This document shows positions 1,037 to 63,438 of a stretch of DNA of 64,000 nt, one piece after another. Position numbers and translations under genes: made by a program. The number at the start of each line of letters is the position of its first letter. Within the stretch, counting starts at the first letter, position 1. Source of the DNA: Eledone cirrhosa (Eukaryota); contig OZ024748.1 in assembly GCA_964016885.1 (NCBI GenBank), positions 6,324,001-6,388,000 of the forward strand. Direction: 5' to 3'. Below the pieces are notes generated by a model. That model saw only the letters and a program-made list of their open reading frames with translations, had not been told where the DNA came from and did not search any database.

Positions 1037-1094
1037 ACATAATAATGAAATTCGTGATGAGCGTGCTATATATTTCACAGTGTCTATATATATA

Positions 1095-1214
1095 TAAACA
1101 CAAATATATATGTAAACACAAATATATATGTAAACACAAATATATATGTAAACACAAATATATATGTAAACACAAATATATATGTAAACACAAATATATA
1201 TGTAAACACAAATA
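1095..1214. repeat. 18-bp tandem repeat (tgtaaacacaaatatata), about 7 copies, at the junction of a family C element
   Basis: The unit core is the reverse complement of the element start. 1201-1230 is a perfect 30-bp palindrome. Confidence 0.9.
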
Positions 1215-1470
1215 ATTATTTGTGTTTACAACAAATTTTAAACAATCCTCTTGACAACTACAATCTTCCCATATAAGGAAGTACCCCCTTGAAAAGTTCG
1301 GCTATTTAATCACCAGGCTAAAAATTCTAATTTAGTCCAGAAATAGCCGTCGAAACGGCTTGAGCTCTGCCGTCGGGGTCATCCTTTTTCTTATTTCCCA
1401 CTCTACTACCCTATGTATTGAGTACTCCGGTGCGTTATGGTCCATCTGGTTCCTTACCACACTTCTTTAG
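1201..1470 (+). mobile_element. Family C putative Penelope-like terminal fragment in (TA)n
   Basis: Homologous to 10471-10590, 11665-11848, 14433-15308, 18258-18398, 29729-29917 and 31451-31700. Ends in (TA)n. Confidence 0.75.
1284..1379 (+). ncRNA. Type I hammerhead ribozyme, U3-A8 core variant (family C)
   Basis: cccc-TTGAAAA-g..cggctattt/aaatagccg.c-GAAA-cggc/gccg-TC-gggg. Predicted cleavage after 1374. Confidence 0.7.
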
Positions 1471-1726
1471 TTATATATATATTTATATATGAAGGACGGC
1501 GGTTGTATGTGTATATATGTGTGTGTTTCCTCATGTGGGTGTGTGTATGTTTGCGCCTGTATGTATGTGTGTATATCTGAAGGACATTGGTTGTATGTGT
1601 ATATGTGTGTGTTTGTTTGTATGGATGTATGTATGTGTGTATGTACCTGTATGTATGTATGTGTGCATGTCGTTATGCATGTGTACATGTGTGTATTTGC
1701 GTGAGTATATGTGTTTGCACGTGTGC

Positions 1727-2712: not shown

Positions 2713-3520
2713 CATGTTGTTGTTGTCGTTATTGTTGTTGTTGTTGTTATTGTTGTTATTGTTGTTATTGTTGTTGTTATTGTCATAGCTCTTGTTCTTG
2801 ATATTGTTGTGGTGGTTGTTGTTGTCGTTATTGTTGTTATTATTGTTGTTATTGTTATTACTCTTGTTCTTGCTATTGTGGTTGTTGTTGTCAATTCTTG
2901 TTGCCGTTTTTATTGTTGTGCTTATTGCTCTTGTTGTTGTTGTTGTTGTTGTTGCTGGTTCGCTTCTTATTAATATTACTGTGCCTGTTGTTAATGTTGA
3001 TGTGTTTTTGGTGGCGGTGGTGTCTTGCTGCTGGTGTCTTTCGTGGTGGTGGTGGTGTTGTCTTTGGTGGTGGAGGTGGTGGTTTTACAGTTGTCTTTGG
3101 TGATGGTGTTGGTGGTGTTGTTTTTGTTGTTTTTGGTGGTACTTCTACTGTTGTTGTCTTTGGTGGTGGTGGTGTTGTCTTTGGTGGTGGAGGTGGTGGT
3201 TTTACAGTTGTCTTTGGTGATGGTGTTGGTGGTGTTGTTTTTGTTGGTACTTCTACTGTTGTTGTCTTTGGTGGTGGTGGTGGTGCTTTTACAGTTGTCT
3301 TTGGTGATGGTGTTGGTGGTGTTGTTTTTGTTGGTACTTCTACTGTTGTTGTCTTTGGTGGTGGTGGTGTTGTCTTTGGTGGTGGTGGTGGTGCTTTTAC
3401 AGTTGTCTTTGGTGATGGTGTTGGTGGTGTTGTTTTTGTTGTTTTTGGTGGTACTTCTACTGTTGTTGTCTTTGGTGGTGGTGGTGGTGGTGGTGGTGGT
3501 GGTGGTGGTGGTGGTGTTGT
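2713..3520. repeat. (GTT/ATT)n and (GGT)n low-complexity tract with higher-order duplicated blocks
   Basis: Repeated block ttttacagttgtctttggtgatggtg...ggtacttctactg, 4 copies in 3080-3480. Confidence 0.9.
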
Positions 3521-9331: not shown

Positions 9332-9422
<91 letters not shown>

Positions 9423-9430
<8 letters not shown>

Positions 9431-9625
9431 TAACAGATGAAAGTTTAAGCAAAGAATCGGTGCTTCAGAAGATCCCGTTAAGGGTGAAAGCAGCAATTCT
9501 TTGCTTAAACTTTAATCTGTTATTTTAATAAATATTTGCTCTACGGTTCTTATATATTTGATATATATTTATCCTTATCGAGCCTTCTTTGGATTTTAGT
9601 CTTCAAATTTATTATTATTACTATG
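9423..9625. mobile_element. Family D fold-back element
   Basis: Short arm 9423-9457 inverted against 9496-9530, then a tail of about 95 bp. Copies at 19886-20142 and 12251-12312. Confidence 0.8.
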
Positions 9626-10428: not shown

Positions 10429-10470
10429 ATATACACTTTATATATACTTAATAGATATATATATATATAT

Positions 10471-10585
10471 AACGAAGGAAATGTGATAAGGAACCAGGTG
10501 GGCCATAACGCACCAAAGTACTCAATACTTAGGGTAGTAGAGTGGGTAATAGAAACGAGTAGGACCCCGGGGTCCTACTCGTTCC

Positions 10586-11666: not shown

Positions 11667-11848
11667 AAAATGTTTAACCCCGACGGCTATTTCTGGACTA
11701 AATTCTAATTTAGTCCAGAAATAGCCGTCTAAGCGGCTTGAGCTCTGCCGTCGGGGCTAAACATTTTCCTATTACCCACTCTACTATATTAAGTATTGAG
11801 TACTCTCTTGTGCGTTATGGTCCATCTGGCTCCACACTTCCTTCGTTA
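11665..11848. mobile_element. Family C fold-back element
   Basis: gacggctatttctggactaaatt ct aatttagtccagaaatagccgtc palindrome, with tail to ttccttcgtt(at)n. Confidence 0.8.
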
Positions 11849-12033
11849 TATATATATATATATATATATGCATAGTGCAGCTGTAATTTCGGGTATGCTC
11901 ATTATTATTATTATTATTATATATATCTACTTTGTGATACAGTCTTTATATTTTTTTGGTACTCCCGAAGAGTCGACACGTCGACCTTTCTTTCCAGTTT
12001 TCTATATAAACCATGAACAAAAGTATATGAGGG

Positions 12034-12069: not shown

Positions 12070-12206
12070 GTGCAGTGAGGATGTTCGGGGAGACAGAGAG
12101 AGAAAGAGGGTGGGTTCAACCGAGGTCGGAAAGATGGAGAAAAAAGAAAAATGATTTAAGATGACTGATAAAAGTAGATACACATACACACACATATATA
12201 TATGCC

Positions 12207-12258
<52 letters not shown>

Positions 12259-13317
12259 TAACAGATTAAAGTGTAAGCAAAGAATCGAGCCCTCTTTGGA
12301 TTTTAGTCTTGAAATGTATGTATGTATATAATATATATATAAATATATATAATATATATATAAACACACACACATATATATATATATATATACATACATA
12401 AATATATGTATAAATGTTTGTGTTCGCGTGTGTATGCGTAGATAGGACACTGGTTAGAGATAAATATGTATATAATAGGTAGGTAGGTTGCTATATCCGT
12501 AAGTAGGTAGGTAAGTTAAAATACCGGTAATTACTACAAAGGAGAAGCCGACAGAGATCAGACAGAAGCCCAGAGAAGCAGGCAGGAAGACAGAATACGA
12601 GAGGTTATAGTGACATCCATAAGTCAGAAATAATTCACAATAATTCTCCTCAATAATAAATTATAATAAAATTACAATAAAATTATAATAAATTATAACC
12701 CCACGTCATATCCTACCACATTATTTATTTGCTTGCTATTTTATTTCATATATATTTATCTATTTCTTATATATTTGTTTCTATATTTGTATAGTTATTT
12801 CAACATTAAAGTAAATCTCGTGTCCGTTCAGTCGTTTGGCTATCTTTAGTGATGCTGTTTCCTTTGACCATTCCGCCATTACAGATATTAACACACAATA
12901 AAACAGACAGTAAATATTAAAGCTAATATGCTAGAGAGAGAGAGAGAAAGGGGGAGGAGGAAAGGACAGTAGAGAGAGCGAGAGAGAGAGAGAGAGAGAG
13001 AAGTAGAGAGGAAGGGAGAGTAAGATCAAGCGAGTGAAGGGAAAGGAGAAGTAGGAGAAAGGAGAAGAAGACGAGCAGTAACAACAACGACAAGGACAAC
13101 AATAGCAATTGTAACAACAGTAACAAGAAAAACAGTTGACATGAAAGAGAAGATAATAATAAAAAAAATATGAAGGAAGCGGTAAGCCTTTGGCCTTTGT
13201 TAAACTTTATTTATGGACAAGAAGTTTGAAGGTGCTGTCCATAAATAACATCAATGCTCCTTCACTGTCGGCCTAGGTCTTTCTCATGATATATATATAT
13301 ATATAGGTGTGTATGTT

Positions 13318-14124: not shown

Positions 14125-14416
14125 AAAAGAAAATTATCGTTCTACATGACAGAATACAATAAATGTAATCTGAGTTTTTCGAACATCAAAAATAACATTG
14201 GATTCGTTTGCAATTATGCAAACAAGCCTCAATTTTATAGCCATGTCAGTAGAATGAACCCTTCATTCTTGCTCTTGTGAACAGAACTCACATGCCAACA
14301 CAAAACCAAAAATGAAGGGTTCATTCTACTGACATGGGTATAAAATTGAGGCTTGTTTGCATAATTGCAAACGAATCGAATGTTATTGTTGATGTTCGGA
14401 AAACTCAGATTACATT
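14125..14416. mobile_element. Family K fold-back element
   Basis: Tail of about 36 bp, arms of about 110 bp (14162-14271 and 14307-14416), flanked by (TA)n. Confidence 0.85.
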
Positions 14417-14432
14417 ATATATATATATATAT

Positions 14433-15308
14433 GAAAAAGTATGATCCCGACGGCAGAGCTCAAGCCGTTTTGACGGCTATTTCTGGACTAAATTAGAATT
14501 TTTAGCCTGGTGAATAAATAGCCGAACTTGTCAAGGGGGTACTTCCTTATATGGGAAGATTGTAGTTGTCAAGAGGTTTGGTTAAAATTTGTTGTAAACA
14601 CAAATAAGTCTATCATGGCATTTGGTGGGTGGTAGGGGTGGCTGAACTTGCCTGTAGAACAATAGGGGAGTGAGTGGAGCGGTCAAGCGTTGAAAGTGAT
14701 ATGTATACAGCAGATTCTAAGGATAATGTATGAAGTGGAGGAGGGAGGTTATAGAATAGGTAAATCGAATGAGAGTAGGAGACAATAAAAGATAATAGAT
14801 AGAAATAAAAATATATATAAAATTAGATAGTGAGAAATGAATAAAAAAAATCACACTGCTATCTTACAATTACAGGTTAATAAGGTGAGAATAGAAAAAA
14901 ACTTGTAGTAATTGAGTAGTACCAAAACTGATACAAAATTAAAGGGGTTTAACACGTCTGCTATAAGTAGATAGTAAAACGTATTCGGCCAATTCTATTG
15001 TTCTACAGGCAAGTTCAGCCACCCCTACCTCCCACCAAATGCCATGATAGACTTATTTGTGTTTGCAACAAATTTTAACCAATCCTCTTGACAACTACAA
15101 TCTTCCCATATAAGGAAGTACCCCCTTGACAAATTCGGCTATTTATTCACCACGCTAAAAATTCTAATTTAGTCCAGAAATAGCCGTCGAAACGGCTTGA
15201 GCTCTGCCGTCGGGGTCATACTTTTTCCTATTTCCCACTCTACTACCTTAAGTATTGAGTACTCTGGTGCCTTATGGTCCATCTGGTTCCTTAGAATAAT
15301 TCCTTTAT
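14433..15308. mobile_element. Family C long fold-back element
   Basis: Arms of about 230 bp (14433-14666 and 14995-15226), spacer of about 330 bp, tail to 15308. U3-A8 hammerhead in both arms (14445-14539 minus, 15121-15216 plus). Confidence 0.85.
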
Positions 15309-15397
<89 letters not shown>

Positions 15398-19463: not shown

Positions 19464-19885
19464 ATTGTGATTGAAACAAGATAGACGAAAACCGGAAACT
19501 GTTTGAAGCCTGTCGGAAGGATTGCATCTGAAATTCAGAGGGTTTGTCTTAGCATACAATCTGTCATACTGCATCTACCTAATAATTACGTTAAGGATAC
19601 TCGTGTCTGTGGAAACCTTAACCATTTAAACGTAAATTTTATGAGCAGACTGTTCCTTTGATTGACCAACTGAAGCAGGTCCATCGATCCAATATATTGA
19701 TTCAATATATTAATGTGTCAATATTGTTGTTGTTATATAGAGTTCTATCTTGCCAGGTTTATTTAGTATCAGATATATGTTAAATGCCTATATTGTTACT
19801 ATTGTTATTCTCACAATTTTACTACATGTAAATAACACACAGATTTCCTGTTTGTTAGTTCCTTTATATGTATATATACATATAT

Positions 19886-20142
19886 AGTAATAATAATAAA
19901 TGTGAAGACTAAAATCCAAAGAGGGCTCGATAAGGATAACTATATATCAAATATATAAGAAACCTAGTGCAAATATTTATTAAAATAACAGATTAAAGTT
20001 TAAGCAAAGAATCACTGCTTTCACCCTTAACGGGATCTTCTGAAACTAAAAAAATCAGATTGATATTTTTTTAGTATCAGAAGATCCCATTAAGGGGGAA
20101 AGCAGTGATTCTTTGCTTAAACTTTAATCTGTTATTTTAATA
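19886..20142. mobile_element. Family D fold-back element with CAGAAGA hammerhead-like motif in each arm
   Basis: Tail 19886-19977, arms about 19978-20056 and 20064-20142. Confidence 0.8.
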
Positions 20143-20159
20143 TATATATATATATATTT

Positions 20160-20265
<106 letters not shown>

Positions 20266-27576: not shown

Positions 27577-27855
27577 GGAATAGAATGAAACGAAATTTCA
27601 TTTCTCACTCTTAGTACGGCACTTACTTAAATGTAACTATGTATGTATGTATACGTACATACATATATGTATACAGACGTACAGTAGTATGTATATATAT
27701 ATACATACATGCACACATATATATATGCACGTATCGGTTTACCGAACATTTATTATAATGCTCGGTTTGTTTGTTTGTAAACAAACAAACACCCCAGATT
27801 ACGCCGTACAGTGTTTAGGCAACCACGTCACCTTTTTGTTCAACACTGACACAGG

Positions 27856-27900
27856 TACGATGTACTAATTTCAAGCTTATTAGCTATCGTCAGCATCGTA
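27856..27900 (-). ncRNA. Minimal hammerhead ribozyme (family P, left arm)
   Basis: tacgatg-CTGACGA-tagc taataa gctt-GAAA-ttag-TA-catcgta. Confidence 0.8.
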
Positions 27901-28082
27901 TACCTTCCTGCCAGATGGTTGAACGTCTGAAAGTATATACTTTCCTTATGCATATTAAGGGCTGAGCAGCCTAATTTGCATACCGACTGAACTCACTCGA
28001 TATGCAAATTAGGCTGCTCAACCGTTAATATGCATAAGGAAAGTATATACTTTCAGACGTTAAACCATTTGGCAGGAAGGTA

Positions 28083-28127
28083 TACGATGCTGACGATAGC
28101 TAATGCGCTTGAAACTAGTACATCGTT
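28083..28127 (+). ncRNA. Minimal hammerhead ribozyme (family P, right arm)
   Basis: acgatg-CTGACGA-tagc taatgc gctt-GAAA-ctag-TA-catcgt. Palindromic stem III ACTAGT, GUA cleavage after 28120. Confidence 0.82.
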
Positions 28128-50642: not shown

Positions 50643-51217
50643 TATATATATATTTCGTTTCTGAATTTGTTTAGCAAGATTCTTTATCTGAAATCGTGTG
50701 TTGAAACCGATATTGTTATACTTTGGGAGGGTCATGTTGCCAATAAGAAACACACGCACCAGTTGCTTTCACTTCAATTTATTATATATTTATAAATTTA
50801 TAAATTTACAAATCTACAAACTTATAAATTTCTGGTTGGTTGGTTGGTTCCACAACCAGATAGTTTATATATATAGTCATAGTCCTTTCGTCACACACTC
50901 TGTGACCTCTTCAGTGACTGGGGATTCCTTTCTTCGTTTCTGTGCCTTTTCTTTCTTCTATCCTAAGCCATTTTGTTTCTGTGTGTGTGTTGTGTGCTCA
51001 GTTTGCGCATGTGCCACATCCGGGTGTCTGTGTGTGTTTGTGTTCATTTTTCTATTTGTTTATTTATTTATTGTTGGTTGGTTGTTTGTTCTATGTGTGT
51101 GTGTGTTTTCATTTTGTCCTGTGTGGTTTTCATTTTGTCCTGTGTGTGTTTTCATTTTGTGTGTGTTTTCAATTGTAAGTTGTTTGTTCTATGTGTGTGT
51201 GTGTTTTCATTTTGTCC

Positions 51218-51535
51218 TTAATTGTAAGTTGTGATGTTGCTGTTCCACTCATATTTTCTATTTAATTTTGGTTTTAATTCTTTTATGCTTACTGCCTCTG
51301 TAATTTGCCTAAACATTGCGTCTTTTCTGTGCGTGGATTCTATTTTTATTTCTATGCTCTCTAATCTACCCCTGTGTTCTATCTTAGCATGTTGGTAGAG
51401 CACAGATGATTCTTTATTATCTTGGAGGTCTCGCCAGTGTTCATTTATTCGTTCCCCTATACTACGAGCTGTCTCACCTATGTACACTATATTTTTGTTT
51501 CTACATTGTCCTTCAGTACATCTTATGCTATACAT
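51218..51535 (-). pseudogene. GIY-YIG endonuclease domain, 5'-truncated but uninterrupted
   Basis: YSIRC...C...VYIGETARSIGERINEH...H...H...EAVSIKELKPKLN. Confidence 0.85.
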
Positions 51536-51620
51536 GTATAGCATGTACATCTTATGCTATACATGTACATCTTATGCTATACAGTACATCTTATGCTATA
51601 CAGTACATCTTATGCTATAC

Positions 51621-51938
51621 ATGTATAGCATAAGATGTACTGAAGGACAATGTAGAAACAAAAATATAGTGTACATAGGTGAGACAGCTCGTAGTATAGG
51701 GGAACGAATAAATGAACACTGGCGAGACCTCCAAGATAATAAAGAATCATCTGTGCTCTACCAACATGCTAAGATAGAACACAGGGGTAGATTAGAGAGC
51801 ATAGAAATAAAAATAGAATCCACGCACAGAAAAGACGCAATGTTTAGGCAAATTACAGAGGCAGTAAGCATAAAAGAATTAAAACCAAAATTAAATAGAA
51901 AATATGAGTGGAACAGCAACATCACAACTTACAATTAA
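51621..51938 (+). pseudogene. GIY-YIG endonuclease domain, inverted duplicate
   Basis: Same translation as the left arm in the ORF track. Confidence 0.85.
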
Positions 51939-52419
51939 GGACAAAATGAAAACACACACACACATAGAACAAACAACTTACAATTGAAAACACACACAAA
52001 ATGAAAACACACACAGGACAAAATGAAAACACACACACACATAGAACAAACAACCAACCAACAATAAATAAATATACAAATAGAAAAATGAACACAAACA
52101 CACACAGACACCCGGATGTGGTACATGCGCAAACTGAGCACACAACACACACACAGAAACAAAATGGCGTAGGATAGAAGAAAGAAAAGGCACAGAAACG
52201 AAGAAAGGAATCCCAGTCACTGAAGAGGTCACAGAGTGTGTGACGAAAGGACTACGACTATATATATAAACAACTATCTGGTTGTGGAACCAACCAACCA
52301 ACCAGAAATTTATAAGTTTGTAGATTTGTAAATTTATAAATTTATAAATATATAATAAATTGAAGTGAAAGCAACTGGTGCGTGTGTTTCTTATTGGCAA
52401 CATGACCCTCCCAAAGTAT

Positions 52420-62657: not shown

Positions 62658-63270
62658 TCCCAGGTCACCAGTTGGTGCTACTGGTAACATGTATCCTAGT
62701 ACAACCTGTCTCATGGTCGGGTCGTTGGCGACTAAACTGGCAACCCCACCAAGGTTTCTTGGTGAGGAGGGTGACTTTGGACATCCTGCAGGACTAAAAA
62801 CAAAACCTGTCAAAGGGCAAAGGAGCCCTTAAGTGTCAAAGGCCATCCAAAATCACCGGGAGAGATGACCCCTTAGCCTTTGTCAAGGCAGAATTCTAGA
62901 AGGAAAACTCTGATATAACACCTGCAACCCTGATGGTATCCAATGATGTTGACTTGTTCTTCTTTTTGGTAAATATCATCTTGGCTAAGAGAGTGGGATT
63001 GGCTTTGTGCAGTGCCTTTGCTCACTATAAAAGCTTCACGGCACAGGCATTGCTTTATATCTGGAGATCTCTCTGCACTTGTCGTCACATGGTACCATGG
63101 GCCAAGCACTATGTGTCAATAATTGTCACAAGTGTAGTGTTTGTACCAGAGTTTTCAAGTCGCTGGCTGGACTAAAAAGTCACACTCGTTCAGTGCATCG
63201 GTAGGGGTTCTCCTACATGGATATAAAGTAGTGGCCGTACTCGAAAACGAGTTGGCAGCCATCATATATG
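62658..63270 (+). mobile_element. Internally deleted RTE-like non-LTR element
   Basis: 63115-63204 encodes VNNCHKCSVCTRVFKSLAGLKSHTRSVHR* (C2H2-like ORF terminus). 3' end ggcagccatcat. The 5' part resembles an RTE 5' UTR from recollection only. Confidence 0.6.
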
Positions 63271-63438
63271 TGTCCAGTCTTCCATTTACAGATATATGAG
63301 GATCTGACCCTGTATTTTTATCTGAGTAGCAATGGTTGCTCAAACATATATATATATATGTATATATATATATATTATAATAAAATGTGGAGAGGAAGCA
63401 CATATTTTTCTTCCTAATAATCGTCTCTTTCTCCCTGT

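Follow-up and report, generated by a model that had tools for sequence, protein, structure and literature searches.

Hammerhead motifs with U-A, C·A and U·G 3-8 pairs in the end repeats of a Hydra-clade Penelope-like retrotransposon of Eledone cirrhosa

Hammerheads of Penelope-like elements

The role of the hammerhead in Penelope elements is stated as unclear by Craig et al. 2021 (PMC8557442). The Hydra hammerheads of that paper (File S2) read CUGANGA in 26 of 26 rows, and the clade itself is marked by RWK, DKT, a CxCX5C linker, CxxC and CxH round a conserved E and N, a C-terminal endonuclease and (TA)n targets. A natural U3-A8 core was first reported by Perreault et al. 2011 (PMC3088659), as a compensated pair in several examples. 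About 1,300 U3-A8 hammerheads are described in the Penelope end repeats (pLTRs) of Schistosoma mansoni by Cervera and De la Peña 2014 (PMC4209133), a paper that also proposes dimer pairing for Penelope hammerheads and describes fungal Penelope hammerheads with a large helix III that cut as monomers. The PAc hammerhead (Poseidon, Anolis carolinensis) cuts only when the element protein is added; C3G or G8C abolishes its cutting, and dead mutants still insert in vitro (Frangieh et al. 2024, PMC11167929).

Here we describe a type I hammerhead at 1284 of a 64-kb window from E. cirrhosa (the whole stretch of DNA analysed, 64,000 nucleotides of contig OZ024748.1), where it sits in the pLTR of a Penelope-like retrotransposon of the Hydra clade. 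The initial annotation of the window missed this carrier, the family being the pLTR of a Penelope-like retroelement, and put a natural U3-A8 pair in its headline; such a pair is not new, having been published in 2011 (PMC3088659) and, for Penelope elements, in 2014 (PMC4209133). A U3-A8 core would surprise no specialist, and the value of the locus lies in the history of the family. Our literature search, which covered largely open-access papers and only the main texts of PMC4209133 and PMC3088659, found no account of this family or of amplified C3·A8 Penelope hammerheads.

Like the Hydra-clade hammerheads of PMC8557442, the motif belongs to an element with the protein motifs of that clade and (TA)n targets, lies near the element 3' end and has a short palindromic helix III; unlike them, with their CUGANGA cores and short helix II, it has a long helix II and a 3-8 pair that is U-A, C·A or U·G. 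Its U3-A8 covariation is identical to that of PMC3088659, in the accessible part of which no family passing through mismatched states is described, whereas mismatched subfamilies occur here. With the Cercyon hammerheads (PMC4209133) it shares the type I form within a pLTR, U3-A8, G10.1-C11.1, a palindromic helix III region and thousands of scattered truncated copies. The Cercyon motif is minimal, lacking helix III and carrying an extra base between 9 and 10.1, whereas the present one combines a 5-bp helix III and a 56-nt helix II with a Hydra-clade host and has no extra base, thereby departing on both counts from the minimal metazoan Penelope hammerhead. PAc (PMC11167929) resembles it in being a pLTR hammerhead with AT-rich targets and copies apparently made from uncut RNA, and the two ends of the present element match the two tail-defining reverse-transcription starts of PAc. 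In contrast, PAc has a canonical C3-G8 core that overlaps the start codon and a tail of 30-40 nt (about 80 nt here), and was assayed in vitro, whereas the present family is known from sequence.

The motif at 1284 and its host element

The named bases, triplet and helices of the initial annotation are all where it had put them (Table 1), as are two further cores reading TTGACAA, at 15126 and at 14534-14528 (minus). Likewise borne out are G12A in the copy at 14445, which also has a G-to-A change in helix I, and G10.1A in the copy at 15121. In the fold, three helices surround the core and both the 5' and 3' ends lie in helix I, the layout of a type I hammerhead; U4, G5, A6, A9, G12, A13, A14, the A15.1-U16.1 pair, an NUH triplet and a free N7 are all in place, as read from the sequence, a tally of 100 matches and alignment columns over 134 copies. 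The three-helix junction is both the minimum-energy and the centroid fold of 1275-1390 (-34.1 kcal/mol, z -3.18, 0 of 200 shuffles equally stable), with helix I continuing beyond an internal loop in the model; the bare motif gives z-scores of 0 to -2.5 in single copies.

The fifth C in the 5' strand of helix I, typical of subfamily A, permits a slipped register. For the 1284 copy the folding model favours ACCCC/GGGGU with C1288 unpaired, giving the core-adjacent cccc/gggg register (pair 2.1-1.1) a probability of 0.03, as against 0.97 in subfamily C, and G10.1-C11.1 a probability of 0.09. This copy had been described as the intact one, which holds for its core bases, but it is itself a truncated passenger: the 1216-1477 fragment, about 260 nt long and 5'-truncated, carries eight private changes (none in the core), its helix I register is predicted to slip, and genome copies of this pLTR are 96-97% identical to it. 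Two copies could pair through the palindromic loop III: in a model, the 19-nt helix III taken from subfamily B scores -30.7 as a dimer and -7.1 as a monomer. CGGCU/(U,A)GCCG recurs in helices II and III (1299-1303, 1346-1349, 1356-1360, 1369-1372), so that a rival hairpin can bury GAAA. Its model probability is below 0.02 in subfamily A, 0.24 in C and 0.62-0.83 in two B-type copies, and the hairpin may possibly act as a folding switch.

Table 1. Features of the motif, its host element and related copies in the 64-kb window
Feature	Position	Strand	Basis
18-bp tandem repeat	1086..1230	.	self-inverted match 1201-1230; sequence
5'-truncated copy of 3' pLTR, Hydra-clade Penelope-like element, subfamily A, ending in (TA)n	1216..1477	+	BLAST against other window copies and full-length L041
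Helix I 5' strand, ACCCCC	1283..1288	+	sequence, fold
Core strand U3 U4 G5 A6 N7 A8 A9 (UUGAAAA); U3=1289, N7=1293, A8=1294, A9=1295	1289..1295	+	sequence, genome-wide states
Helix II, 56 nt: G10.1-C11.1 (1296/1351), U.U and bulge, 9-bp stem (1299-1307/1341-1349), internal loop, distal 7-bp hairpin	1296..1351	+	fold
G12 A13 A14 A15.1 (GAAA)	1352..1355	+	sequence; subfamily-level change absent
Helix III, 5 bp, self-complementary GAGCUC loop (1362-1367)	1355..1373	+	fold
GUC triplet, predicted cleavage after C1374	1372..1374	+	hammerhead numbering
Helix I 3' strand, GGGGU (GGGG at 1375-1378)	1375..1379	+	sequence, fold
Tail, start of 5' UTR in tandem elements	1380..1474	+	end mapping; L041 and L093 continue into ORF
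Tail fragment, same Hydra family as 1284 motif	10466..10569	-	sequence match
Short end, older A-type subfamily	11700..11852	+	sequence match
Inverted 5'-truncated arm of subfamily A insertion, short end, hammerhead with G12A	14429..14998	-	inverted-repeat and self matches
Forward arm of the insertion begun at 14429, long tail, hammerhead with G10.1A	14995..15314	+	inverted-repeat and self matches
Short end, young subfamily C, 98.6% to L093	18253..18392	-	sequence match
Inverted pair, short subfamily B ends	29728..29921	.	sequence matches
Inverted pair, short subfamily B ends, 3' half of hammerhead only	31450..31716	.	sequence matches
Family D ends (also at loci L113-L132, L300-L309)	9334-9624, 12194-12287, 19884-20233, 63116-63383		hammerhead-like layout with A4 (CAGAAGA)

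The first DNA search of the species' own genome (3.0 Gb) returned 2,567 candidates, of which the 40 scored were 96-100% identical. Longer copies carry pieces of an ORF upstream, with reverse transcriptase (RT) and a C-terminal endonuclease; locus L041 has the order motif, ORF, motif (pLTR-ORF-pLTR), and searching with the protein recovered numerous intact frames, part of them arranged in tandem with a period of about 3.53 kb. The ORF encodes 717 amino acids from its ATG, an RT/GIY-YIG protein with YRDD and YIG present, and in tandem copies this ATG lies 191 nt past C17, which places the motif upstream of the start codon. Protein P0001 carries RWR, DKT, YRDD, CNCPDRSIC (CxCx5C), YIG, CNLCSE (CxxC.E) and CKH (CxH); the Hydra-clade motifs are present in 37-40 of 40 aligned proteins. 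It has 2,049 homologues at E<=1e-30, and a search for its Pfam family gave no match. The copies lie in (TA)n, often with an inverted 5'-truncated arm, and pLTRs, tandem arrays, such arms and an optional tail are all traits of Penelope elements. The protein motifs and the TA flanks together indicate membership of the Hydra clade. A retrozyme, defined in abstracts as a small non-coding repeat without an ORF of its own, is ruled out by the intact ORF in the family.

When the seven core bases were left free, the pattern matched 6,716 times in the 3-Gb genome, with the arms of inverted pairs counted twice, and a reversed control matched 0 times; the motif is not due to chance. The earlier reading of a hammerhead motif in a multi-copy eukaryotic family is supported. 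The prediction that standard searches would miss it also held: Rfam gave no hammerhead family for 1230-1450 (two matches up to E=10) and none among the best 150 of 411 matches, mostly false microsatellite ones, for the whole window. By hand count, the first 100 matches listed of the 6,716 have U4, A6 and A8 in 100, G5 and A9 in 99, and at N7 61 G, 17 A, 12 U and 10 C. That only position 7 varies, as the initial annotation had it, is true of the three window copies and their subfamily; it fails genome-wide, position 3 being C in 24 of the 100 and G8 occurring in one old subfamily.

Conservation of the core against its flanks had been set beforehand as a test. In an alignment of 125 copies, a second base reaches 5% at 0 of 13 core sites, 1 of 28 helix sites and 10 of 39 sites of loop II. 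Upstream it does so at 20 of 54 sites; downstream the figure is 11 of 91, the 3' flank being well conserved too. Subfamily-level variable sites are fewer in core plus helices than in the flanks (1 of 41 versus 31 of 145, p=0.002), whereas the core alone, a weak test, gives 0 of 13 versus 31 of 145 (p=0.051). Position 3 lies outside the 13 core sites, the G8-selected loci L073-L092 were dropped, the subfamilies are non-independent through shared ancestry, and patterns with fixed helix bases were used to fetch part of the loci. Apart from position 3, the core (12 positions) does not change between subfamilies. U4, G5, A6, A9, G12, A13, A14, A15.1, U16.1 and C17 are constant at that level, whereas all four bases occur at N7. 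Changes within helices tend to retain pairing: at 1371 G-C becomes G.U, at 1368 a U-A pair arises, and subfamily C has gained a new 10.2-11.2 pair. Over the helix II stretch, subfamily changes fall mostly within loops.

History of the 3-8 pair and a second Hydra family

The exact U3/A8 pattern, which leaves out subfamily C (A at 10.2), matched 3,085 times, the C3·A8 pattern 1,708 times (subfamilies B and B2), and the G8 pattern 43 times, including 10 with C3-G8; with its own diagnostic bases, the old subfamily E shows U3·G8 in 22 of 29 matches. A Watson-Crick 3-8 pair, U3-A8, is present in the 1284 copy and in subfamilies A and C, and absent from B and B2 (C·A) and from E (U·G). The 3-8 pair does not covary cleanly, and uncompensated subfamilies have amplified as well. 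Of the covariant U3-A8 pair claimed at the outset, the part that stands is that U3-A8 occurs where relatives have C3-G8; clean covariation does not survive the amplified C3·A8 and U3·G8 subfamilies.

Trees from the core-masked pLTR and from the ORF agree in placing A (U-A) on one side, followed by B2 and B (C·A). Inside B, the ORF trees nest C, the youngest subfamily, together with its kin (U-A), at UFBoot of 100 and 94-95, and the return to U-A is a single event. On these trees, subfamily C, with its intact ORF, regained U3-A8 from within the C·A clade. Mean pairwise differences are 0.013 in C, 0.030 in B, 0.036-0.048 in A and 0.087 in B2, the samples for A and B being partly top-scoring matches. 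Rooting with the outgroup family D (below) gave differing roots at 50-79% support, and two orders of four steps each fit: U·G, U-A, C·A, U-A, or C·A followed by U-A twice. Both remain, and both, starting from C-G, pass only through pyrimidine-purine states; the former is slightly favoured because E has the most divergent ORF (one copy, 79% to C).

Relatives point to the starting state. In metagenomes, 77 loci at 35-46% identity contain 15 sense descriptor matches in 14 loci, all 15 with C3-G8, by a descriptor open to either pyrimidine at 3 and to either purine at 8 but requiring a Watson-Crick 10.1-11.1 pair; 63 of the loci have no sense match, two antisense matches occur, and shuffles gave 0. 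C3-G8 hammerheads thus occupy the end repeats of relatives, a homology of place that supports the identity of the present motif as a hammerhead. Because Hydra-clade relatives elsewhere carry C3-G8 (these 15 of 15 sense matches and the 26 of 26 rows of File S2), U3-A8 is the derived state here. We considered whether an ancestral C3-G8 subfamily survives and rejected it, as the 10 such matches occur at about the rate of point mutation and those sampled are scattered among C3·A8 copies. An N7-deleted register (CUGA-GA) was likewise considered for the C3 copies, since G7 dominates them, and ruled out: A7 and U7 also occur with C3, and G7 is common to U3 subfamilies and is explained by descent.

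A second Hydra family, D, has a protein 53% identical to that of the 1284-motif family. Its motif was recognised by eye, the hammerhead descriptor giving no match for it, and lies 162 nt before the ATG in the layout of published Hydra hammerheads, with U.U at 10.1-11.1 and A at position 4. The family D pattern matched 20,369 times; the first 100 matches listed contain CAGAAGA in 94, A4 in 100 and U4 in 0. The hammerhead fold is not of minimum energy (-14.7 when forced, versus -18.6), which makes the hammerhead reading weaker there. CUGANGA descriptors and Rfam together miss about 27,000 hammerhead-type matches in this one genome (6,716 plus 20,369). A sub-threshold Rfam hairpin, MIR9486 at 20004-20116, corresponds to an inverted pair of family D ends. 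Canonical CUGANGA minimal-hammerhead matches flank family D loci (L113:379, L126:642, L130 (minus):42 and L131 (minus):552), indicating that other elements with ordinary-core hammerheads exist in the genome.

Element ends, cleavage and the explanations weighed

The (TA)n run starts 16-17 nt past C17 in 61 of 161 copies and 97 nt past C17 in 56 of 161, so that the element has two fixed 3' ends, about 17 and about 97 nt beyond C17. None of 92 copies, picked by their 5' core, ends at C17: 79 run through it by script, six that were flagged continue on inspection, and seven have no matching 3' half. This suggests that the template RNA was uncut or re-joined.

We favour, with a probability of about 0.6, the reading that the motif is a weak self-cutter, assisted by protein or by dimerization, that would trim tandem transcripts after C1374 and would be unneeded for any single insertion. 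Under this reading, tandem arrays would be transcribed, the element protein, or a second copy acting through the palindromic loop III, would aid folding of the core, and cutting would yield unit-length RNA, while reverse transcription would begin downstream of the motif on RNA that is uncut or re-joined. Under weak selection for cutting, the fold and 12 core bases would be kept even as the 3-8 pair moved from one pyrimidine-purine state to another; the same selection would also account for the return to U-A in the youngest subfamily. Against this reading count the at least 1,708 C3·A8 matches and the approximately 20,000 U4A matches, which fit no cutting at all, as well as the weak outcome for the core alone, the conserved 3' flank, the low model probabilities of the core-adjacent helix I register and of G10.1-C11.1 in the 1284 copy, and a return to U-A that happened once. 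In the main rival reading, the hammerhead would be catalytically dead, cutting having been lost in the lineage, and kept for its shape as a landmark for protein binding or for the start of reverse transcription. C3-G8 occurs in no sampled subfamily and its 10 matches are scattered as by point mutation, the C·A and U·G subfamilies were amplified, family D has A4 in 100 of 100 matches listed, no copy of the 92 ends at C17, and catalytic mutants of PAc still insert in vitro (PMC11167929). We nevertheless regard a dead fold as rather unlikely. Core bases without subfamily-level change around an N7 that takes all four bases are what catalysis would enforce; every 3-8 state pairs a pyrimidine with a purine, and Watson-Crick pairing came back in the youngest subfamily. 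The motif likely retains weak self-cutting.

Two further explanations fare worse. A fully active, self-sufficient monomeric ribozyme, with U3-A8 as a required compensatory swap, would suit the real 5-bp helix III and long helix II, which set the motif apart from minimal Penelope hammerheads, as well as the minimum-energy junction and the monomeric cutting of the fungal hammerheads with a large helix III (PMC4209133); it is made improbable by the spread of uncompensated C·A (1,708 matches) and U·G (22 of 29) subfamilies, by copies that always span the cleavage site, and by the GAAA-burying hairpin at 0.62-0.83 in two B-type copies. That transposon-end hairpins merely happen to hold GAAA and GUC, a chance resemblance for which the Rfam searches without a hammerhead and the single-copy z-scores of only 0 to -2.5 might speak, is largely refuted by the canonical hammerheads in the end repeats of clade relatives, by the position-7 pattern and by the helix-preserving changes, and we hold it to be very improbable.

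A bolder and more tentative proposal, which we consider possible but do not expect to prove correct, is that the core has come loose, masters having moved thousands of times with C3·A8, U3·G8 or A4, after which the 3-8 pair was repaired to U-A in the youngest subfamily. Cores with C3·A8, U3·G8 or A4 should cut poorly or not at all. Were the proposal true, the family would be a dated natural series in which either mobility can do without cleavage, although cleavage is under weak selection, or the protein rescues mismatched cores. The U-A, C·A, U·G and A4 variants can be ordered on a tree, with copy counts, and an intact young ORF is at hand for the protein; the question whether Penelope hammerheads must cut thus becomes testable with natural sequences.

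The other copies in the window are collected in Table 1. The two arms at 14429-15314 are one subfamily A insertion. Next to this insertion, at 14162-14416, lies another palindromic element, about 255 bp long and with arms 89% alike. The tandem repeat at 1086..1230 looks, from its sequence, to have been built from the inverted 5' end of the 1284 copy plus TA, and a short interspersed repeat at about 900-1020 presumably resembles octopod SINEs. This repeat and the microsatellites would suit an octopod cephalopod as host. Near-perfect long inverted repeats lie at 51126-52030 (419 nt, 100%) and 27694-28289 (297 nt, 96%). A Pro/Thr/Lys-rich repetitive open stretch on the minus strand at about 2950-3520, with PPPPPKTTTVEV-like units, is possibly an exon of extensin or mucin type, or else a triplet repeat. 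A similar G-rich repeat lies near 42000-43300.
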